Assembly (NCBI GenBank): GCA_963741205.1
Contig: CAVUHW010000026.1
Span: 288,001 to 352,000, forward strand
From: Nitrospirota bacterium
Lineage (GTDB): Bacteria > Nitrospirota > UBA9217
Length of the DNA stretch: 64,000 bases
Reading direction: 5' to 3'
Within the stretch, counting starts at the first letter, position 1; every line of letters starts with the position of its first letter. Both the position numbers and the translations under genes were made by a program. Shown here one piece after another: positions 17,718 to 59,708 of the stretch. Under the pieces are notes generated by a model that saw only the letters and a list, made by a program, of their open reading frames with translations, did no database searches and was not told the DNA's origin.

Positions 17718-19663
17718 TCATGCCTTTACCAGCAGTTCCTCTTTCACAAAATTCAGCGTCCCGCCGGCCAGCAGATGTTTTCTCTGGCGGTCGGACACGT
17801 CCAGAATCGTCATGATCACCCTGCCGTCGACCTCCACGGGTATCTCCCGGTCCCCCCGTTCGATCCGCTTCCGCACATCGGGAAACACGACCTTCGTCCC
17901 TTTCTTCAGGAGGTCATAGTCCTTCGGGTCCTTGAAGGTAAGCGGGAGAATGCCGAAGTTGCAGAGATTGGACTTGTGGATGCGGGCAAAGCTCTTGACG
18001 ATCTTCGCGCGGACGCCCAGATACCGGGGAGCAAGCGCCGCATGTTCGCGGCTCGACCCCTGGCCGTAGTTCTCGCCGCCCACGACGACCACCGTGCCCC
18101 TCGCCTTGCACTCCTTCGCGAAATCGGGGTCGACCTGCGAGAACACGAACTCGGCCAATGCCTCGATATTGGAACGGAACGGCAGCACCCGGTTTCCCGC
18201 CGGCATGATCCCGTCGGTGGACATGTTGTCTCCCACCTTCAGCACCACCTCGGCCGCGAGCGTGTCGGGAAGCGCGTCGAGCTCGGGCAGCGGCTTGATG
18301 TTCGGCCCGCGCACGATCTCCGTCCCGGCAAGTTCTTCGGACGGGAAGAATGATAGACCTCTCATCGATCACATACTGTTTCGGGTCCTCGATTCGGGGA
18401 TACGCCATTTCCTTCGCAAGTTCGCGGGGATCGGTGATCACGCCTTTTAGCGCCGCCGCGGTCGCCGTCTCCGGCGAGCAGAGATAGACCTGGTCGTCCT
18501 TGGTGCCCGCTCCTGCCCGGGAAGTTCCGCGGGAAGGTGCGAAGGCTCACCTCGCCGGTGCCGGGCGCCTGGCCCATGCCGATGCAGCCCTGGCAGCCGG
18601 GTTCATGCACGCGCGCGCCCGAAGTCAAGAAAGCGAGGAGCCCGCCCGCCTGATACACATTTTCGAGCACCTGCCTGCTGCCGGGGTTCACGTGGAACGA
18701 CGTATTCGGGATGAACGCGCCTGCCTTCCAGCATCCTGGCCGAGACCATCAGGTCCCGGAAGGACGAGTTCACGCTGCTGCCCACGATGGCCTGGTCCAC
18801 TTTGATGCCGGCGATCTCGCGCACCGGCACCACGTTTCCGGGCGACGACGGCTTGGCGATCAGCGGCTCGAGCTTCGACAAGATCGATCTCGGCGTGTTC
18901 GTCATACTCTGCGCCCTCGTCGGCGGAGAGCGGGACCCAGGCATCGCCCCGGCCCTGGGCATCAGGTATTCCCGGGTGCGCTCGTCGGACGGAAAGATGG
19001 AGGTCGTGGCCCCGGTCTCGGTGCCCATGTTGCCGATGGTCTCCCGGTCCGTGGCGGACAGGGTCGGGACCCCCGGGCCGTAGTACTCGATGATCTTGCC
19101 CACGCAGCCCTTGACGTCGTAGCGGCGCAGCATTTCGAGGATCACGTCCTTGGCGCTCACCCAGTCGGGAAGTCTGCCCGTGAGCCTGACGCCGAGCACC
19201 TTGGGGCAGGGGAGATGATAGGGATAGCCGGCCATGGCCAGGGCCACGTCGAGACCGCCCGCGCCGATGCCGAGCATCGAGACGCCGGCGGCGCCGGGCG
19301 TATGGCTGTCCGCGCCGAAAAGGGTTTTGCCCGGAACGCCGAAGCGCTCCATGTGCACCTGGTGCGAAACTCCGTTGCCCGGCCTGCTGAAATGGAGGCC
19401 GTATCTGGACGCGGCGGTCTGGAGGAATTTGTGGTCGTCGGCGTTCTTGTTATCGGTCTGGAGAAGGTTGTGGTCCACGTACTGCGCCGCAAGTTCCGCC
19501 TTTACCCGGTGAGGCCCAGGGCCTCGAACTCGAGCATGGCGAGCGTGCCGGTCGCGTCCTGGAGCAGCGTGTGGTCGATCCGGATGCCGATCTCCCTGCC
19601 GGGTACGAGTTCACCCTCCACCAAGTGGGCTTCCAGTATCTTATAAGTAAGGTTTTTTTGCAT
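17718..19663 (-). CDS. acnA: Aconitate hydratase (several frameshifts)
   Basis: MQKNLTYKIL...QDATGT, GADSHT, GCQGCIGMGQAP, RNFPGRSG, NYGQGSSREHAA across consecutive frames. Confidence 0.9.
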
Positions 19664-25830: not shown

Positions 25831-27383
25831 TTACCTCGGATGAATGAAGTTCAGGTATGCATTCGCAAGTGGCATCGGAGTCAAGGAATACATCTTCATG
25901 ACGTCAACTTGCTCCTCGCTATCATTCGGGCATGCCGAACTGTGCCCTCGAACTATTGCTTTAGTCAATCCCGTCTTCTTCGCCGCATCGGCGACAGCGG
26001 CGGAAACGGACGCAACGACGGTGCGGTCGAAAATGCTCGGGATGATGTAATCCTCGTGCAGTTCTTCGGTAGCGACCGTATGGGCGATGGCGTGGGCAGC
26101 CGCGAGTTTCACTGCCTCGTTCACGCCCCGCGCCCGAACGTCCAGAGGCCCCGGAAGATGCCGGGGAAGCCGAGCATATTGTTGATCTGGTTCGGGTAGT
26201 CGGACCTTCCCGTTGCCATGACCCGCGCCAGCGAATGCGACCTCTTCAGGCGAGATCTCCGGGTCGGGATTGGCAAGGGCGAACACGATGGGGTCCCTGG
26301 CCATCTTGCGTACATCGTCGGCGGTGATGACGTTCGGCGCGGAAAGGCCGATGAACACGTCGGCGCCTTTCATAGACGTCCGATATGCTTCCCCTGCACC
26401 TCGCGCGGATTGGTTATCTTCGCCAGTTGCCGCTTGTAGGGGTCCATGCCGTGCTTCCTGCCGGCATACAGGGCGCCGGTCCTGTCACACACCGTGATGT
26501 CCTTTACGCCAGAGGCGAGGAGTATCCTGGTCACGGCCGAACCTGCAGCACCCGCGCCCACCACGACGACCTTGAATTTTTTCAGGTCCCGTTTCAAAAG
26601 CCGCGAGACGTTGATAAGCGCCGCCAGCGCAACAACACGACGTCCCGTGCTGGTCGTCATGAAACACGGGGATGTCGAGCAGTTTCCTGAGCCTGCTCTC
26701 AACCTCGAAGCAGTGGGGCGCGGAGAAGTCTTCGAGATTGATGCCGCCGAATGCCGGCGCGATGTTTTTCACCGTGGCCACGATCTCATCCACATCCTTG
26801 GTCGCGAGCACGATCGGGAACGGCGTCGATGCCGGCGAATTCCTTGAAGATCATGGCCTTGCCTTCCATGACAGGAAGCGCCGCCTCGGGCCCGATGTCG
26901 CCGAGGCCCAGGACCGCGGTGCCGTCGGAAATAACGGCGACGGAATTGCCTTTGATGGTGTAGCGGTAGGCATGCTCTTTATGCTCATGGATGTCCATGC
27001 AGACCCGCGCCACGCCCGGCGTATAGACCTTGGACAGGTCGTTGCGGTCCCTTACCGGAAGCTTGTTCCTGATCTCGATCTTGCCGCCCTCATGGGCGGA
27101 GAAGGTGCGGTCCGAGACCCTGATGACCTTGACGCCCGCCACGGTCTTGATGGCCTTTACGATGGCTTTTTCGTGCATCCTCGTTCTGGGCGTTCGACGG
27201 TAACGTCCCGGATGATCTTGCCCTTCTCCACGCGCACGATGTCCACGGAGCCCAGGTCTCCGCCGGCGCTCGAAATGGCCGTTGCGATCTTCGCGAACAT
27301 CCCGACCTGTTCTCGATCTCGACCCTGATGGTGATGCTGTAGCTGGGGCTGCAGCTGTATCCGGGCGTGCACACGTTGTCCAT
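25831..27383 (-). CDS. NAD(P)-dependent malic enzyme with N-terminal ACT domain (several frameshifts)
   Basis: [11 protein letters not shown] (ACT), [52 protein letters not shown]. Confidence 0.9.
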
Positions 27384-27586
27384 GGCGTTTCTCCTTTACC
27401 ACTTATTATAGATTCAATCCCGGCGATGGTCAACTCACGGCCGCTCATACATAGTATACATGTACTGCTGCTCAAGAGGGTTAACATCCTTTTATAAAAA
27501 AATCACCGTGCAAAAATCGGATAAAGTATGTATAATTGTAACCATTGTCGTCAGGACCATCGATCAACCGACCATTGAATATCGTT

Positions 27587-41975: not shown

Positions 41976-43283
41976 ATGGGAAAGAAAGGCTGGCTCGTAA
42001 CAGTTGCGGGAATTGGGCTGAACCTGGCCCTCGGTATTCTCTATGCGTGGAGTATGTTCAGTAAGCAGCTCACAGAAGCCGTGGAGAAAGGAGGCTTTGG
42101 GTGGTCCAAGACCCAGGCCACGCTCCCTTATACCGTTGCGATTGCCTGCTTCGCGGTTATGATGGTACCCGCAGGCCGCTTGCAGGACCGCTTCGGCCCC
42201 CGAATAGTCGCCACGATCGGCGCGTTGCTCTGCGGCATCGGCCTTGTGATAGCGAGCTTTGGCGGCCCGGCGTCCGTCCTCCCCGCGATTCTGGGCTTTG
42301 GGGTCCTGAGCGGAGCGGGCATCGGCCTGGGATATGCATCGGCCACCCCCGCGGCAGTCAAGTGGTTCCCGCCGGCAAAGAAGGGACTCATTACCGGACT
42401 GGTCGTCGCAGGCTTCGGTCTGGCGCCCGTGTATATCGCGCCGCTTTCGAAATACCTTCTTGGAACGTATGGGATCAACTCTTCATTCAGAATACTGGGC
42501 ATTGCCTTCATCATTGTTGCGGGAATTGCCGCGCAATTCATCTCGAATCCGGCCGCTCCGGCGACAGTCAAAACGGCAAACTCGAAAAGCGTCTCATCGA
42601 ACGACTTTACCTGGCGCGAGATGCTGAGGACCCCGGCCTTTTATTCTCTCTATATCCAATATGCCTGCGCCGCGACAGCCGGTCTCATGATCATCGGCCA
42701 CCTGGCGAAGATCATCGCCGTGCAATCCGGCAATACGATCAAGATCGGCTTTCTCTTCGTCGCCCTCCTCGCGATCTTCAACGCGAGCGGTCGCGTGGTG
42801 GCGGGAATTGTTTCGGACTACATCGGCAGGCTCATAACCCTCGTCTTCGTTTTTATCATGCAGGCCACCATTATGGCTTTTTTCCCGCAGTTCTCCACCA
42901 TCTCGGGCTTTATAATCGGTTCCGCAATGGTGGGTTTCAATTACGGCGCGTGCCTTTCCCTCTTCCCGTCTACAACGGCGGATTATTGGGGGACGAAGAA
43001 CCTCGGGATGAACTACGGCATCCTCTTTACCGCGTGGGGCGTCGGCGGCATCTTCGGCCCCATGCTGGCGGGGTTCATTTCTGATGCCACCGGCTCCTAT
43101 GCCATGGCATACTATATAGCCTGCGGCCTTTTGGCATTCGCGGCGTTCGTGGGCATGACCAGCTATATCAGCGTCTCGATAAGTTTGCCGCAGAAGCAGA
43201 TCGTCATCAGTTTCGCCGGGAAATCGGCGAAGACAAAAGAAACCAGCCCGGACCCTGCCCTTGAAACCGGGAAAACCATGTGA
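41976..43283 (+). CDS. OFA family MFS transporter (oxalate/formate antiporter-like)
   Basis: GILYAWS, GRLQDRFGP, KWFP, KNLGMNYG. Confidence 0.9.
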   Translation: MGKKGWLVTVAGIGLNLALGILYAWSMFSKQLTEAVEKGGFGWSKTQATLPYTVAIACFAVMMVPAGRLQDRFGPRIVATIGALLCGIGLVIASFGGPASVLPAILGFGVLSGAGIGLGYASATPAAVKWFPPAKKGLITGLVVAGFGLAPVYIAPLSKYLLGTYGINSSFRILGIAFIIVAGIAAQFISNPAAPATVKTANSKSVSSNDFTWREMLRTPAFYSLYIQYACAATAGLMIIGHLAKIIAVQSGNTIKIGFLFVALLAIFNASGRVVAGIVSDYIGRLITLVFVFIMQATIMAFFPQFSTISGFIIGSAMVGFNYGACLSLFPSTTADYWGTKNLGMNYGILFTAWGVGGIFGPMLAGFISDATGSYAMAYYIACGLLAFAAFVGMTSYISVSISLPQKQIVISFAGKSAKTKETSPDPALETGKTM

Positions 43284-43316
43284 CAGCGGGCATGACGAGG
43301 GGAACTCTGTAAAAAA

Positions 43317-43347
43317 ATGGCCCCGGAGCCGTCATGCCCGGGGCCAT
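43317..43347. terminator. Bidirectional hairpin between the OFA transporter and acuC
   Basis: ATGGCCCCGG...CCGGGGCCAT preceded by an A-tract. Confidence 0.6.
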
Positions 43348-43382
43348 ACTATGACTAAAGCGAATCTCTATGACTCACCACA

Positions 43383-44504
43383 CTAGAGTGTTCGAAGAAC
43401 GTGCTCCCTGATATACCCGATTACCCTGTCTACTTCTTTCCTCATCGCCTCTTTCCTTCTTCCGTCCACGACAAATTGTTCGTCCCGCAGTCTCCTGCCC
43501 GTAAAACCGGCGATCTGATACTGACGAAGAAAGGCTTCGGGTATCTCATCGGGAGCATCAATGCCGTTCATAATAGCCCAGGCGAGGGTCCATGCCCTGG
43601 CCACATTTGCGATATCATACCCGCCGCCTCCAAGCGCCACCCACTTCGGGGACAGGACTTGGATCATCTTGACGACGCGGCAAAACCCGTTCGTCGTCAG
43701 ATTCAAGTGGGCCAGCGGATCACTCCAGAATGTATCGACCCCCAGCTGGCTCACGACAATATCGGGCCTATAGGCGTCCACGAGAGGCGGAACGAGCTCC
43801 GTAAAGGCATGGATGAATAGGTCGTCATCCGCCTCCGGAGGCAGCGGGACATTCACGCAGTACCCGTTTCCCGCACCCGTGCCGGTCTCATGCTCGGTGC
43901 CGGTGCCCGGGAAGAGGGCTTCTCCTGTTTCATGCAGGGAAATCGTAAGGACCTTGTCCGTATTGTAGAAGGCCTCCTGGACGCCGTCTCCGTGATGGGC
44001 GTCAATGTCGATATAAGCGACCCTTCTTCCCCGGCCGACCAGTGACTTGATTGCGAGAACAGGATCATTGATATAACAGAACCCAGAGGCATGACCGGCC
44101 ATTGCATGATGGAGCCCGCCCGCGATATTGAACGCAACTTCCGCCTCTCCGCTGTCAACGAGGTCCGCGGCCTTGAGTGAAGCGCCGGCAATGAGCCTCG
44201 ACCAGTCGAGCATGCCGGCGAATACGGGATTGTCCCCGGGGCCGAGCCCGTACGCTTCGGCGCCGGAGACGTACTCACCGCTGTTTGTTGTCTTGAGGAT
44301 ATTGATATATTCCGAGGTATGCCAGGAGAGCAGGTCCTCAACGCTCGCTATATGCGGCTCGACCAGCCGCGGGTCAGGTACGGTGAGCAGGCCGCATGCC
44401 TTGATCAGCTCATAGGTTAGCTTCAACCGGAATGGCTTCAACGGGTGGCCGGACCCGTAATCGAACCCGGCGAAGTCGTCGGAGTAGATGAAGGCAGTTT
44501 TCAT
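43383..44504 (-). CDS. acuC: Acetoin utilization deacetylase (HDAC class)
   Basis: HPLKPFR, GGLHHA, SGFC, DIDAHHGDG, GGGGY. Confidence 0.92.
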   Translation of the reverse strand: MKTAFIYSDDFAGFDYGSGHPLKPFRLKLTYELIKACGLLTVPDPRLVEPHIASVEDLLSWHTSEYINILKTTNSGEYVSGAEAYGLGPGDNPVFAGMLDWSRLIAGASLKAADLVDSGEAEVAFNIAGGLHHAMAGHASGFCYINDPVLAIKSLVGRGRRVAYIDIDAHHGDGVQEAFYNTDKVLTISLHETGEALFPGTGTEHETGTGAGNGYCVNVPLPPEADDDLFIHAFTELVPPLVDAYRPDIVVSQLGVDTFWSDPLAHLNLTTNGFCRVVKMIQVLSPKWVALGGGGYDIANVARAWTLAWAIMNGIDAPDEIPEAFLRQYQIAGFTGRRLRDEQFVVDGRRKEAMRKEVDRVIGYIREHVLRTL

Positions 44505-44664
44505 GGATTTACTCTGTCTCTATTTTACCTCAATCTCTGTGAACCATAGCTCGGTTAAAGGGTCATCCTTTCGTCTATCGGGAGGAGCGCATAAATCATA
44601 GATCTCGAGGGGAGTTTTGAATTGGGACATACGACATGGTACCGGGTTTCTACGCGGAAGGTAA

Positions 44665-44737
44665 TGGTGATAAGGCAATCGGCCCGGACGTGGAGGGCTG
44701 AATAATACTGCTCCGCGCCTTCGAAGTCCTTGAAGGA
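44665..44737 (-). pseudogene. Fragment of a PIN toxin paralog
   Basis: Translates to SFKDFEGAEQYYSALHVRADCLIT, versus AFKDFEDAVQYYSAIHVRADCLIT in the intact gene at 46384..46806. Confidence 0.85.
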
Positions 44738-44738
44738 C

Positions 44739-44766
44739 GCAACGGATGCAATAACGTCACTCTCTA
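44739..44766 (+). repeat. 28-bp direct repeat, copy 1
   Basis: GCAACGGATGCAATAACGTCACTCTCTA. Confidence 0.85.
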
Positions 44767-44845
44767 TCTTACAGGAAACTGGATGGCCACCGCATTATCA
44801 GGAGATGTAAAATTAGAAATACAGCTTAGAATCATTCTTTTTTAC

Positions 44846-44874
44846 TTGCGCCCGGCATCTGCTTCGGTTATACT
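44846..44874 (+). promoter_or_regulatory. sigma70 promoter
   Basis: TTGCGC-N17-TATACT. Confidence 0.55.
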
Positions 44875-44931
44875 TATTTTAAATAGGATAAAATTTGTAC
44901 TAATTAAGTTTCTTTAAGGAGGAAGTTGATC

Positions 44932-45465
44932 ATGCATACGACAGCCAGCGGTTCATTGGAGTACAAGAACGATTTTTTCACTCTCGTCATTCGTGAGTCC
45001 GAGCACCGCCCCGGGAGTTACATTTTCTCCAGCGGGATCAGCCTCCCCAAGTTCAACCCCATCATCTGGGGAAGGACAGGAATCTGCTCCAATGCGGCAT
45101 TTAAGGCCCTGCAGCAGCTTCAGGCCGATATGTCTTACTTTGCCCTGCAGCGGGGCATTGCGACGAAGAGCGCCGATATCCCCTCCGGCTCGACAGGCGG
45201 ACACGGGCACGGCTGGTATGAGGAAAATGCCCTCTTGATCGAGGACGCGTCTCCCGAGGCTATTCAGGATATCCTCGCGTTCAGCGCACGGGACCTCGTT
45301 CAGACGATCCTGAATGCCTGCCAATCGGATGTCAGTGTGCCGGCCGGATTGGATTCCGCGGCAATGCAGCGTTTCCTCGAATCGGTGGGCATCTCGAATT
45401 ACCGGGAAGCGGCCCCATCGCCGATCTCGAAACCGACCGGAGAGACAGTAGACGGGAGATGGTAG
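44932..45465 (+). CDS. Hypothetical protein
   Basis: Open ORF with AAGGAGG RBS, own promoter and terminator; no family recognised. Confidence 0.75.
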   Translation: MHTTASGSLEYKNDFFTLVIRESEHRPGSYIFSSGISLPKFNPIIWGRTGICSNAAFKALQQLQADMSYFALQRGIATKSADIPSGSTGGHGHGWYEENALLIEDASPEAIQDILAFSARDLVQTILNACQSDVSVPAGLDSAAMQRFLESVGISNYREAAPSPISKPTGETVDGRW

Positions 45466-45509
45466 ACTGAGGTAGTATATAACAAAAAAGGCAGAGACGA
45501 CTAAAACAC

Positions 45510-45540
45510 AAGGGCCCGGGAATTTCCCGGGCCTTTTATT
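45510..45540 (+). terminator. Intrinsic terminator
   Basis: GGCCCGGGAA-T-TTCCCGGGCC followed by TTTTATT. Confidence 0.75.
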
Positions 45541-45586
45541 TGAAGGGAGTGCTGCCGTCAGAGAGTACAGCTCACCAGCCTGCTGC

Positions 45587-45614
45587 GCAACGGGTGCAAC
45601 AACGTCACTTTGTA
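45587..45614 (+). repeat. 28-bp direct repeat, copy 2
   Basis: GCAACGGGTGCAACAACGTCACTTTGTA. Confidence 0.9.
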
Positions 45615-45694
45615 TTCTACGCGATAAACGCGGATGCCTCGCTCGAAGAAAAGATCTGAGATGCGATGAACAAGGCTTTTAGCGAAAGGAAAGA

Positions 45695-46282
45695 TTATGC
45701 TTGGCGCGGGGAGGCAGTACGCTTCTGCCTCGTGGGGCGATTGGTAACTGCCTTGCTCTTGTCGTCAAAAAAGCGGAAAAGCTTGTCCTTCCATGCTCCG
45801 GCATACTCCACGCCGACCCGCTTCGTCCTCCTGATCAGCGGCCGGTACGCAGTGTCCTGCAGGAGAAACAGCGTATCGCCGGTGAGGTCGAGGCCGTTCA
45901 TGGTACGAGTGATCCCAAGCGCGCGCGTAAGCTTGCCCGGGCCCGAAAGGTCGGCATTCCAGTCGCCCAGGGGCTCGGCTGCCCGGATGAGCACAGCCTG
46001 ACCGCTTCCTGCTTTACCTGCGACGATATTGAACATCTCGTACATCCCGTAGATCAAGTAGACGTAAGCATGGCCTGCCGGACCGAACATGGTTTCCGTG
46101 CGTTTCGTGCGGCCTTTGGAAGAGTGGGAGGCGAGGTCCTGGGGGCCGGTGTAGGCCTCGGCCTCAACGATGCGGGCCCGGTGTTCCCTGCCGCGCATGC
46201 GGCGGACAATGATCGCCCCGATCAGGCCGGGGGCAAGCTTTTTCGCATCGCGCTGGTAGAATGAATGGTCGATTTTTTTCAA
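45695..46282 (-). CDS. mpg: DNA-3-methyladenine glycosylase (MPG/AAG family)
   Basis: RIVEAEAY, AYVYLIYGM, AVLIRA, GPGKL. Confidence 0.92.
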   Translation of the reverse strand: MKKIDHSFYQRDAKKLAPGLIGAIIVRRMRGREHRARIVEAEAYTGPQDLASHSSKGRTKRTETMFGPAGHAYVYLIYGMYEMFNIVAGKAGSGQAVLIRAAEPLGDWNADLSGPGKLTRALGITRTMNGLDLTGDTLFLLQDTAYRPLIRRTKRVGVEYAGAWKDKLFRFFDDKSKAVTNRPTRQKRTASPRQA

Positions 46283-46307
46283 AATGGCGGTACTCTCTTA
46301 ACGCCGT

Positions 46308-46335
46308 GCAACGGGTGCAACAACGTCACTCTATA
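46308..46335 (+). repeat. 28-bp direct repeat, copy 3
   Basis: GCAACGGGTGCAACAACGTCACTCTATA. Confidence 0.9.
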
Positions 46336-46383
46336 ACATTGTGTGTTAGACTTGTCTGTAAACTTGCATGATTCCCTCAAGGC

Positions 46384-46806
46384 CTACCGTTCATCGCCAA
46401 TAAGCGCCAGGAACTCTTCGGGAGTCATAACCGGAAGCCGGTCCACACGGTAATCCACCTTGTTTCTGGTGATTAGGCAGTCAGCCCGGACATGGATAGC
46501 TGAATAATACTGTACTGCGTCTTCAAAGTCCTTGAAAGCTGAGGTGAGCGAAAGATCGATCACTTTTTCATCGACTGCTGCGACACGAAAGACGATCCTG
46601 AGCTTTTCCAAGACCCGCATCGCTTTGTCTCGTTTCAGTTCCCTGGACAAAAGATAGAACATCGTCGGAAAGCTCTGCGCCGAGAGATAACCCTGGAGCT
46701 TCTTTTCTTCGATCAGGGAAAACAGCTTCGCGGCAGGACCATAATGCGGATCCCGCTTTAGAAAGATGTCGAGGATGACATTGATATCGCAGAGAAGGCT
46801 CTTCAC
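46384..46806 (-). CDS. PIN-domain toxin (VapC-like)
   Basis: LCDINVILD, KDFEDAVQ, ITRNKVDY; overlaps the antitoxin stop. Confidence 0.9.
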   Translation of the reverse strand: MKSLLCDINVILDIFLKRDPHYGPAAKLFSLIEEKKLQGYLSAQSFPTMFYLLSRELKRDKAMRVLEKLRIVFRVAAVDEKVIDLSLTSAFKDFEDAVQYYSAIHVRADCLITRNKVDYRVDRLPVMTPEEFLALIGDER

Positions 46807-47051
46807 CGGTACTTCTCCGCAAGATGCTTCCGGTACCCCGCTCGCAGTTGCGCGGCATCCTGCTTGCCCGAAAGTACGCCCGCTACCTCGTACAGGACCG
46901 GCGATTCCCGCACCTCCTGCACTCCCTGTTCAGCAACAGCCTTAAAATAGTCCTCCACCATGCGCGACAGGCTGACACCCTTCCTGCTCGCGGTCTTTTT
47001 TGCCTTATTGATTACGGTCTCATCCAGTCGTAGGGTCAGTTTCGTGGTCAT
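46803..47051 (-). CDS. Ribbon-helix-helix antitoxin (DUF6364-like)
   Basis: MTTKLTLRLD...GVSLSRMVEDYF...HLAEKY; AAGGAGG RBS. Confidence 0.85.
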   Translation of the reverse strand: MTTKLTLRLDETVINKAKKTASRKGVSLSRMVEDYFKAVAEQGVQEVRESPVLYEVAGVLSGKQDAAQLRAGYRKHLAEKYR

Positions 47052-47066
47052 GAGCGCATCCTCCTT

Positions 47067-47107
47067 GATGACGTACATATATTATAATATTGTACGTCAT
47101 CTGTCAA
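47067..47107 (-). promoter_or_regulatory. TA promoter with palindromic operator
   Basis: TTGACA...TATAAT/TAATAT overlapped by the perfect 11-bp inverted repeat GATGACGTACA-N13-TGTACGTCATC. Confidence 0.75.
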
Positions 47108-47181
47108 GCCCCTCCGCTGACATAAATAGACGAGTCCGGGATAATTTCTCTCCGGCCTTTCAGGTCGATCGCAAGTCCAAT

Positions 47182-47214
47182 AAAAAAGCCGGCAGAGATA
47201 TTCTCCCTGCCGGC
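47182..47214 (-). terminator. groEL terminator
   Basis: GCCGGCAG...CTGCCGGC stem followed by T6 on the minus strand. Confidence 0.75.
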
Positions 47215-47302
47215 CTTTGTGTTTCATTTCCTCGCCTGCACCGCAGCCGGTCATAGACGAAGTGCTCGCCGCGAGTGCAGGGTGTGAAAGGAAATTCTAT
47301 TC

Positions 47303-49297
<1,995 letters not shown>

Positions 49298-49345
49298 ACA
49301 ATTAACTCCTTTCTGTGTTGTAATGGTTTATAGAATATCAGAACG

Positions 49346-49372
49346 TTAGCACTCGTTCAAGGCGAGTGCTAA
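49346..49372. promoter_or_regulatory. CIRCE element (HrcA operator)
   Basis: Perfect TTAGCACTC-N9-GAGTGCTAA upstream of groES. Confidence 0.97.
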
Positions 49373-49485
49373 TATATTGCCCGGCCGCAAAAAAAGCAAA
49401 CCCTATTTTAGGTTATTTACGGCTGATTTTAGCTAGTTACAGGCTTAATTTACTGAAAATCTCAACTTCTCTGACTTCTCATTCA

Positions 49486-49525
49486 TAAAAAAAATAAAAG
49501 CAGGATAGGTATATCCTGCTTTTAT
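49486..49525 (-). terminator. Terminator after ctpA
   Basis: ATAAAAGCAGGATA...TATCCTGCTTTTAT with adjacent A/T tract. Confidence 0.7.
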
Positions 49526-58056: not shown

Positions 58057-59708
58057 TGAACTACCCGCCACTGAACCAATTACATGGTTGCAGTAGGGGT
58101 TTCACGGATCATAGAAGCATGCAGTCCCTGGGTAGTTCCCAAGGCGTGTCTTATCTGCTTCTCCCCGTGCGTAACTTCGGCCGGTTCCCGGCCTAGTGTT
58201 TCCTTCTTCCTTAACCGCATGGCGCGTTTGTGATGCTTTACGGCAATTTCGCCGGACACAAGCATTTCTATGCCGCGCTTCTTGATAACGAGAGACGCAT
58301 TGGTATCGGCGTTTTCCGTAAAGCCACAGCTCTGGCAATCGAACACCGCCTGTGACTGGCGGTTGTCCGGGTGAGTGTGCGAACACTTCGAACTCTCCTG
58401 TGAGGTGCCGTGCGGCGGTATGGCGATAACGAGCTTGTTGCGTCGTGAGGCTTTATACATGGTAAAGAGTTTTACCTTGCCCCACGCTGATTCGAGTATG
58501 GACTTGTTGAGACCGGCCTTGGCCTTTGCCCCGTTCGCAATATACGTCCCGCCGGCTGACTTCTTCGGCTTTGGCGCTCTGGTCATGTTCTTGACCTTGA
58601 GGTCCTCGAAGACGAACACCTCCGCGGGTGAATCCACGAGCTTGCGGCTGGCCTTATGCGCGAAATCATGCCTCACATTGGCAGCATACACCTGGCAACG
58701 GGCTGATTTCGCAGCTAATTGCTTAAAGCGGCCGGATCCTTTGATCCGCCTCGCCAATTGCCTCTGATATCTCTTCTTCCGGGCATCCTTTTTTACCAGT
58801 CGCTCTTTTTGGATGCCGGAGAAGTCATGCACCGAGCCGTCGCTCGTTGCCAGCGGGATTACAACCCCTCGGTCCATTCCCAGGGTAACGGTATTGAGAC
58901 TCTCTGATGACATGCCGCCGTAAAGCTCGAGAAGTTCCTGCTCGCTCAAAACTGTGCCTTGCTTCTCATAGGAGAACGAGACATACCATTTCCCGGACTC
59001 CCGGGAAATGGTGATAGCCGCCGGAATTTCGTACTCATCATGAGCCTTGAACTTAAGTTCGCCCAGATCGACCGACTTTGTGCCAAGCATCAGCCGGTGC
59101 TCATATATTGTTTTGTCCTGCCGCTGTTTTGAGCCTCCAGTAGGAACGAACCTGAATAGCTCGCTGGTAATCCAGACGGACTGCCGTCCAGCCTTCTTTT
59201 TATAAGCAGGGCGACCAGCCAGTCCTGTCAGGTACCTCTTGTAGGAGCCCATGAACCTGGTTGCGCCGTTCCTTAGGATCTGAGACGGCACATCGTATAA
59301 AAACGGAGTGAGTTCCTTGTCCTTGAACTGGGAGTACTGCTGATCAATCGGCGGCTGTAGTCCGGTTAGCGACAGTGAGTGATTCCGGAATGTTCGGAAA
59401 TAACGCTCCTCGGCAACCTTGGCGTTGTAGATAAACCGCTGGCAGCCCATCCACTGCGCGAGAATATCGGACTGCTCCGTTGTCGGGTAGCAACGGAATT
59501 TTATGCCGCTTGAAATCGCCATATTTCTAATATAGGTGATGAATCCTGATAGTGCAACTAAATAAAACGCTGCAGCCATCAGCCTATATTATAAGATTGC
59601 AGTATCGTTTTTAGTAGCACAAACAATGGCACGAATCCACGCCCAAAACAGTCCGCTTGACCCCCTCCTGGCGCTTCGCCCCTAGCAGGGGGAATGCGCG
59701 GACTTTAG
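58057..59708 (-). mobile_element. IS200/IS605-family element lacking intact tnpA
   Basis: tnpB plus right end GAAACCCC...CAGTGGCGGGTAGTTCA and left-end hairpin CCCCCTCCTGG...GCAGGGGGAATGCGCGG; exact boundaries approximate. Confidence 0.8.
58080..59522 (-). CDS. tnpB: RNA-guided endonuclease TnpB
   Basis: KFRCYPT...GCQRFIYN HTH; RuvC LGMDRG, VFEDL, NADTNA; Zn ribbon ESSKC...CQSCG. Confidence 0.93.
   Translation of the reverse strand: MAISSGIKFRCYPTTEQSDILAQWMGCQRFIYNAKVAEERYFRTFRNHSLSLTGLQPPIDQQYSQFKDKELTPFLYDVPSQILRNGATRFMGSYKRYLTGLAGRPAYKKKAGRQSVWITSELFRFVPTGGSKQRQDKTIYEHRLMLGTKSVDLGELKFKAHDEYEIPAAITISRESGKWYVSFSYEKQGTVLSEQELLELYGGMSSESLNTVTLGMDRGVVIPLATSDGSVHDFSGIQKERLVKKDARKKRYQRQLARRIKGSGRFKQLAAKSARCQVYAANVRHDFAHKASRKLVDSPAEVFVFEDLKVKNMTRAPKPKKSAGGTYIANGAKAKAGLNKSILESAWGKVKLFTMYKASRRNKLVIAIPPHGTSQESSKCSHTHPDNRQSQAVFDCQSCGFTENADTNASLVIKKRGIEMLVSGEIAVKHHKRAMRLRKKETLGREPAEVTHGEKQIRHALGTTQGLHASMIRETPTATM

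Follow-up and report, generated by a model that had tools for sequence, protein, structure and literature searches.

Three direct repeats between acuC and groEL of a Nitrospirota genome are probable solo ends of TIRtrons in a hypervariable accessory region

The stretch of DNA analysed here, called the window, is a 64-kb segment of contig C26 (CAVUHW010000026.1) of a Nitrospirota genome (G000), and it carries three direct repeats between acuC, a histone deacetylase-family gene, and groEL. In our explanation, to which we give a probability of roughly 0.62, each repeat is a single (solo) copy of the terminal inverted repeat (TIR) that bounds a TIRtron, an element of ~1.1 kb that encodes a Y1/HUH transposase with a C-terminal helix-turn-helix (HTH), the 'TIRYT'. 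In the portion of the original description considered here, TIRtrons are RAYT-like genes flanked by long TIRs with a GGGGWSAS tip, and the TIR copies of a genome can be single, dimeric or grouped (Di Nocera, De Gregorio & Rocco 2013, BMC Genomics 14:522, PMC3733652). The three window copies are most likely inert relics, since no intact cognate enzyme was found in G000; they mark the joints of an accessory patchwork that they probably helped to create. An apparently enigmatic repeat is now named and tied to a widespread, known Y1/HUH class that has never been studied at the bench, and this uncultured Nitrospirota family allows intact, internally deleted and end-duplicated elements and solo ends to be compared within one family. 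Throughout the text, G labels denote genomes and L labels fetched loci.

Three direct repeats in the acuC-groEL interval

A degenerate 28-mer pattern matched the window exactly three times, always on the forward strand:

44739..44766, + strand: repeat 1, putative solo TIRtron end with the variant tip GTCAC, then ...TA
45587..45614, + strand: repeat 2, putative solo TIRtron end, on which an orphan gene and mpg converge with their 3' ends
46308..46335, + strand: repeat 3, putative solo TIRtron end; the mpg start follows 25 nt downstream in the direction of that gene, and the stop of a PIN toxin gene lies 48 nt away on the other side

No match was found in 100 dinucleotide-shuffled versions of the window, against three in the real sequence; chance predicts no copy at all, and a chance reading was rejected. 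The initial annotation had reported direct repeats at 44739, 45587 and 46308, and they were confirmed together with their spacings (848 bp from repeat 1 to repeat 2, 721 bp from repeat 2 to repeat 3). The identical core formed by the first 23 nt of repeats 2 and 3, and the tandem GCAAC-N4-GCAAC that can be read inside the repeat, are also present as described, and the likeness among the three repeats covers about 35 nt. Repeat 1 has 3 mismatches over the 22 positions of the family consensus GCAACGGGTGCAACAACGTCCC, and repeat 2 was recovered with an E-value of 1.9e-09 by an nhmmer profile built on relatives' copies alone. Read on the opposite strand, the window motif is GTGACGTTGTTGCACCCGTTGC, and the tip of the window copies in the orientation of the element is GTGACGT.

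The motif is rare in G000 (4.27 Mb in 50 contigs, 84% complete), where four copies were found at three mismatches or fewer and none with the reversed control. Three of them lie in the window within 1.6 kb and the fourth is on contig C13; the nhmmer profile returned the same four copies plus one marginal match. None is located upstream of a core gene; a motif scattered upstream of many core genes, as a transcription-factor site would be, had been named as the finding that would speak against recombination or attachment scars.

The motif as terminal inverted repeat of a Y1/HUH element

A 22-mer pattern of the motif was found 146 times in the family, in 48 of its 64 genomes (1-11 copies per genome), and the reversed control matched 8 times. 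An exact 20-mer occurred in 25 stretches across the genomes of 185,579 species (one genome each), and 23 of these stretches were labelled Nitrospirota, Nitrospirae or Nitrospiraceae. At G023:C13 (L034) and G035:C100 (L035), two inverted copies 1.07 kb apart enclose one open reading frame (ORF) of 325 aa, which matches the Pfam family Y1_Tnp (IS200-like; 6.2e-13), has weak HTH matches at its C-terminus and in translation contains the HUH motif NHVHLL and the tyrosine motif RYIHLNP. The same arrangement of inverted flanks is seen from coordinates at G023:C70 and G035:C105. In relatives, the motif forms the 22-45 nt terminal inverted repeats of a lineage-specific element of ~1.1 kb.

Read from the outside in around intact TIRYT genes, the TIR is GGGGACGT(T/A)GTTGCACCCGTTGC. 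On the strand of the repeat the tip reads ACGTCCCC/TA, of which the window copies carry the variant GTCAC...TA. Homologues of the transposase are present in 51 of the 64 genomes; a single genome can have as many as 23 matches, and G035 holds two copies that are 100% identical. All seven inspected paralogous loci (L063-L069, 63-75% identity) have inverted repeats that carry ACGT(T/A)G at their outer end or close to it, and at six of these loci GGG or GGGG comes directly before. The tip (G)GGGACGT(T/A)G is constant among paralogous TIRYT genes, whereas the inner part is peculiar to each locus; GGGGACGT itself occurs in five of the seven loci and in L034 and L035, and matches GGGGWSAS at 6 of 8 positions. 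Since inverted copies of the motif flank Y1_Tnp genes and the inner parts are specific to each paralogue, the window motif is, as judged from these alignments, the end of one particular TIRtron subfamily.

The initial annotation had seen no recombinase in the window and had proposed the search for a linked one. Such an enzyme exists in relatives, namely the Y1/HUH transposase flanked by the inverted motif, but none was found intact by tblastn in G000, which is 84% complete, so that the cognate enzyme could sit in the missing part. Searches with the cognate transposase gave matches on contigs C23, C13 and C24 only and none on the window contig C26, and among 59 window ORFs searched against Pfam no integrase or Y1 transposase family was found. 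The first observation holds for integrases and Y1 transposases, but the window does contain a solitary TnpB (58080-59579, - strand, 499 aa; OrfB_IS605, Cas12f1-like TNB and HTH_OrfB_IS605 matches), with no adjacent Y1 TnpA and no motif nearby.

For the TIRtron at G035:C100, the empty-site comparison matched the right flank to a partial, 98% identical second gene copy and left the left flank unrelated, and no target-site rule was derivable from it. The duplicated gene, identified by comparing L035:2599-3163 with L174 (G035:C86) and 8 congeners, is kept in 14 of 15 congeners. Its second copy in L035 is joined a few bases past the TIR tip, which may reflect a rearrangement, a capture at the element end or an assembly chimera.

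Decay products and a proposed origin of solo ends

The cognate gene has left a remnant in G000, a fragment of 39-40 residues that shares 82% identity and lies inward of the C13 copy at a distance of about 500 bp, and the paralogue on contig C23 shares 40% identity and has unrelated inverted repeats. Elsewhere in the family, L182 holds an internally deleted TIRtron of ~500 bp whose left end is tandemly duplicated. Tandem duplications of 31-32 nt, each consisting of an element end and ~10 nt of outside flank, are found at L182:1985-2052, in L040 (G014:C2:553802-553855) and at G011:C226:691-744. The deletion in L182 and the tandem end duplications indicate that internal deletion is a route of TIRtron decay and that a single end can be duplicated; the duplications moreover suggest some replicative event at single ends. 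Short flank words were also noted to be repeated after the ends in L034. Beside the fourth motif copy of G000 lies an 84-aa cysteine-rich ORF (L004:1667-1921, contig C13) with several CxxC pairs and no Pfam family, located between that copy and the transposase fragment and next to a fragment of a sigma-54-type activator gene.

We propose that the C-terminal HTH would read the inner GCAAC-N4-GCAAC boxes and that the HUH domain would nick near the ACGTC(C/A)C...TA tip. Solo ends could then go back to TIRtrons that inserted between genes of an interval which tolerates insertions and is hypervariable; internal deletion or one-ended duplication would afterwards leave a single end. Their common orientation may follow from the strand-specific chemistry of Y1 enzymes.

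Genes and modules between acuC and groEL

The interval and its two anchor genes contain the following features besides the repeats:

43383..44504, - strand: acuC-type gene of the histone deacetylase family, which anchors the variable interval on the left (Pfam Hist_deacetyl, 1.1e-84)
44570..44738, - strand: PIN_3 toxin pseudogene, a 3' fragment cut exactly at the inner edge of repeat 1 (alignments and translation)
44772..45545, + strand: orphan-gene module, with a promoter-like site (44784-44813), an ORF and a bidirectional hairpin terminator (45513-45533)
44932-45465, + strand: orphan ORF of 177 aa, no Pfam match
45695..46282, - strand: mpg, 3-methylpurine DNA glycosylase (Pfam Pur_DNA_glyco, 2e-52)
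46384-46806, - strand: PIN_3 toxin (Pfam, 2.9e-23)
46803-47051, - strand: DUF6364/CopG-like antitoxin (Pfam, 1.7e-21)
47107-47079, - strand: promoter-like site of the toxin-antitoxin (TA) pair, TTGACA-17-TAATAT (promoter scan)
47135..47157, no strand assigned: hairpin that ends the TA module; GATCGTTCAAAC-GCTGC and the repeat come next in G034, G035 and G059, unrelated or degenerate sequence in the window
47188..47214, - strand: groEL terminator hairpin; homology with empty-site relatives (L053, L044, L046) resumes at ~47180
47303..48960, - strand: groEL, right anchor, in three ORFs in this assembly

ORF, Pfam, promoter and terminator scans bore out the view that each interval between repeats holds exactly one gene, the orphan ORF with its own promoter and terminator in one and mpg in the other, and that a complete PIN TA pair follows repeat 3. 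The truncated PIN paralogue said to abut repeat 1 is also real. Positions 44665-44734 share 84% identity with the intact PIN gene (46467-46536) and 88-92% with PIN genes of relatives, the translation covers PIN residues ~89-113 and continues into a degenerate C-terminus, and the remainder (44570-44665) is homologous to L152, L158 and L042. By eye, a sigma-54 promoter was considered and dropped as the GG/GC spacing does not fit.

The orphan module is 68-89% identical across 12 Nitrospirota loci, with homology that starts at 44772-44799 and stops just past the terminator in the loci that reach that far. The 177-aa orphan ORF has no similarity to the 178-aa ORF beside mpg in G003; its true homologue there is the neighbouring 177-aa ORF. 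The mpg gene is present in 20 of the 64 family genomes, and the best match of the window copy (81% identity) is in another genus, whereas same-genus copies share 67-76%; this patchiness and the cross-genus closest copy are a hint of horizontal exchange. DNA homology of the mpg region with G003 is confined to the coding region (45737-46283). The TA module (~46400-47160) is 81-84% identical in G034, G035, G059, L072-L074, L076 and L110 and 77% identical in L075.

Apart from the repeats, groEL attracted attention because it is broken into three ORFs, and the aconitase and malic-enzyme genes of the window are likewise in pieces (17718-18691 and 25831-27487). An intact groEL of 548-551 aa is found in G028 and G027, and contigs from other sequencing runs omit single bases at 47664-47666, 47938-47944 and 48220-48228. 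With these omissions, assembly indel errors seem a more likely cause of the broken genes than pseudogene formation.

Variability of the interval among relatives

We compared 14 acuC loci of relatives, four of which have groEL adjoining acuC. G037 and G029 have an empty site, with nothing between the two genes but intergenic DNA that includes the groEL terminator. In G027 and G028 a metallo-beta-lactamase (MBL)-fold hydrolase gene lies between them, accompanied in G028 by a 101-aa ORF, and no motif is present. Homology on the acuC side with the loci of 12 relatives stops at 44504-44510, and with the loci of congeners it resumes at ~47180, which leaves ~2.7 kb inserted in the window. Other public metagenome-assembled genomes have the orphan gene beside groEL (L153) or the order groEL-TA-motif (L110), and L073 has the order orphan gene-MBL hydrolase-PIN-antitoxin without the motif. 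Gene content between acuC and groEL is variable, as the initial annotation had anticipated: empty in two congeners, made of other genes in two and a patchwork in the window. Comparison of these loci indicates that the interval is hypervariable and that modules are shuffled among genomes.

Repeats and module boundaries

The TA module lies between direct copies of the motif in G034, G035 and G059. The right side of the module is common to these genomes and consists of the promoter, the hairpin, GATCGTTCAAAC-GCTGC and GCAACGGGTGCAAC, beyond which the alignments diverge completely; in all three, TA-module homology stops inside or after the right-hand copy. The outer right neighbours are different in each of them, and the left neighbour is common to G034 and G059. 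The junction between a motif copy and the orphan module is likewise common to the window and G003, with the order of the orphan and mpg units permuted. Direct arrays with gene-sized spacing recur in eight genomes of six genera (G000, G003, G034, G035, G049, G051, G059 and G063). Among neighbouring copies not belonging to TIRYT elements and at most 5 kb apart, 10 pairs are direct and one is inverted, to which two 32-nt tandems are added; kin genomes contribute to these counts and are not independent.

All this would fit an active cassette exchange, in which a Y1/HUH enzyme nicks direct TIR copies on the same strand, excises a single-stranded circle with one copy and reinserts it at another. The patchy distribution of mpg with its closest homologue in another genus, and the 31-32-nt tandem duplications of TIR and flank, which imply activity at single ends, could be accommodated in the same way. 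However, the modules also occur without the motif. When a match was defined as at most 4 mismatches in 20 within 2.5 kb of the module, the motif accompanied only 3 of 80 PIN loci and 4 of 12 orphan loci. No match was found in L072, L073, L074 and L076, which are among the closest TA homologues (proteins 80-89% identical); within that group a clear copy is present only in L077 and L110, and L075 has marginal 4-mismatch matches far from the module. Homology of the orphan module stops at its own terminator in every genome, and 56-200 nt of unrelated DNA separate the left-hand copy from the TA-module homology, leaving the crossover without a fixed point. The same modules being found without it, the repeat is not an obligatory cassette boundary.

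Public reads gave no circle or empty-site junction at the repeats, in short contigs with a depth of 1-5 over the array; the best read runs contained at most 0.16 of the sampled words, and contigs only were used. Two weak hints, which do not amount to firm evidence, are an X1 contig that matches 46343-47124 and is unlike the window from 7 nt past repeat 3, and an X2 record (depth 2.3) in which position 45614, where repeat 2 ends, is fused to 45718. Cassette exchange would also require an intact enzyme, which was not found in G000, and the Y1 enzymes studied so far use hairpins, none of which is predicted here. We therefore regard active exchange as unlikely, and an HUH-based, integron-like exchange of single genes and TA pairs, of which the acuC-groEL array would be one accretion site, as rather doubtful. 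If direct solo ends were transposase substrates, they would reveal a way in which host genes are shuffled by an HUH enzyme; otherwise the interval is an ordinary hypervariable spot littered with transposon relics.

The earlier expectation that gene content would vary in units bounded by the repeat thus holds in part. Solo ends are often located at homology breakpoints and at the joints of accessory units, but 8 of the 12 orphan loci have no repeat within 2.5 kb. As far as these alignments go, the repeats fall on breakpoints in more cases than not and are dispensable for the presence and the movement of the modules.

Host elements and integron sites

The position of repeat 3, 25 nt upstream of the mpg start, also raises the idea that the motif is an element of the host, borrowed by or from a transposon end, with a role in regulation (operator or outward promoter) or at the RNA level (a site at which the antitoxin-PIN-mpg mRNA is processed or stabilised). 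Repeats 2 and 3 would be transcribed if mpg were read through from the TA promoter, as gene order and the lack of a terminator-like site between PIN and mpg suggest, and in relatives a terminator-like hairpin is attached to many of the copies. Repeat 2 nevertheless lies between convergent gene ends, G000 holds just 4-5 copies with none upstream of core genes, and no promoter-like site is located inside any repeat. Moreover, an Rfam scan of 43000-49500 by E-value gave no match, and when both strands of the three copies and two TIRtron ends were folded as DNA, no significant structure (z from -1.98 to +0.48 for the copies) and no stem spanning the motif were predicted. The shared operator or promoter module that the initial annotation had offered as its alternative fails on these grounds, and a host element of any of these kinds is highly improbable.

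An integron origin was considered because G000 encodes an integron integrase on contig C18 (TIGR02249, 367.5 bits, above the cut-off); 28 of the 64 family genomes carry one that passes the cut-off. The repeats would then be attC-like sites of a cluster of attC sites lacking an integron integrase (CALIN), served by the enzyme elsewhere in the genome, and TA pairs and orphan ORFs such as those of the window are typical content of integron cassettes. A home-made scan that combined a regex with folding, applied to 44000-47500 and to the 8 kb next to the integrase (C18:133001-141000), found no attC-type RYYYAAC...GTTRRRY imperfect palindrome, however, and the repeats fold no better than their shuffles. 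Contig C18 has no motif match, and a repeat search over 10 kb spanning the integrase (~8 kb on the side where an array is expected) found no shared site. The 10 integrase loci compared have no motif nearby, the cases on the same contig being ~48, 174 and 590 kb off, and the motif has been shown to form the end of an element with a transposase. These results contradict an integron origin, which we consider very improbable. A 'long attC' in which the upstream GTTCTGAAAC would pair with GTTCAAAC around the hairpin was also tried and rejected, the pairing not being kept in other copies.

The integrase itself (C18:131982-133454, L057) has 490 aa, with an N-terminus ~170 residues longer than the 315-position model. 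This long form (frames of ~450-560 aa) recurs across the family, and no obvious attC array was recognised beside L057. In at least six genomes, Y1-transposase paralogues (~40-44% identity to the cognate enzyme) lie ~0.05-7 kb from integron-integrase genes or fragments (G024:C139, G022:C324, G023:C145, G002:C1, G042:C11 and G035:C79).

Points that weigh against solo TIRtron ends

Several observations weigh against the explanation of the repeats as solo TIRtron ends. Besides the failure to find an intact cognate TIRYT in G000, the GTCAC tip and the conserved tail (CTnTGTATCTYY-like) of the window copies never flank a TIRYT gene in the loci compared, and the GTCAC-tip variant may therefore be a separate derivative that has its own role. 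Simple decay is not an obvious predictor of 10 direct pairs out of 11, nor of three of the four copies of G000 falling within 1.6 kb, and the intermediate steps from a two-ended element to a solo end were not observed. The tip agrees with the published GGGGWSAS at just the 6 of 8 positions given above. Finally, Di Nocera et al. 2013 (PMC3733652) report no biochemical test and state themselves that binding and cleavage are yet to be demonstrated for any TIRYT.

Comparison with known systems

The initial annotation had found no match to attC, dif or CRISPR architecture, and this was borne out. CRISPR arrays have uniform short spacers, whereas the intervals here measure 848 and 721 bp and hold whole genes. 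Sites of the dif/pdif type resemble the window repeats in that they have 28 bp and bound small modules, often TA pairs; however, no 11-6-11 dyad symmetry is visible in the motif, and pdif modules are bounded by inverted sites whereas the window copies are all direct. With integron attC sites and CALINs the window shares a direct array of short sites, one small gene or TA pair per interval and an integrase in the genome, but there are no R''/R' boxes or attC-type palindrome, the array is not near the integrase and the site is a transposon end.

IS200/IS605 elements have the same Y1_Tnp catalytic domain, and their single-strand, strand-biased chemistry is a model for the cutting of ends. They carry subterminal hairpins and no terminal inverted repeats, in contrast to the 30-45-bp TIRs and C-terminal HTH of the elements described here. 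As in the REP/REPIN-RAYT systems (Bertels & Rainey 2011; Bertels et al. 2017, PMC5581495), a short extragenic repeat is inverted around a Y1/HUH gene and intergenic copies persist. They differ in that the motif has no palindromic hairpin, occurs in 1-11 copies per genome instead of dozens to hundreds and was not found as inverted doublets, and in that the transposase behaves like that of an IS, one genome having as many as 23 matches to it, instead of being a single-copy, vertically inherited RAYT.

The closest fit is to TIRtrons, with some differences. The tip GGGGACGT departs from GGGGWSAS at two of eight positions, the host is a Nitrospirota family, and the window has solo ends only, with the variant tip GTCAC and a conserved tail. 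Direct ends at the joints of accessory modules are an arrangement not found among the TIRtrons in the portion of their description considered here (PMC3733652). The TIR of a Y1/HUH gene and the HUH and tyrosine motifs that define the class were found in relatives, not in the window, and the cognate enzyme was not found in G000. The likeness lies in a RAYT-like Y1/HUH gene of ~1 kb with long, GGGG-tipped TIRs in the elements of relatives, in extra TIR copies that include tandem pairs and direct groups among the 146 matches in 48 of 64 genomes, and in paralogues that each have their own TIR. Of the initial proposal that the repeats are attachment scars of an undescribed cassette-accretion system, what stands is that sequences of a mobile element lie at accessory joints; the system itself fits the published TIRtron/TIRYT class.

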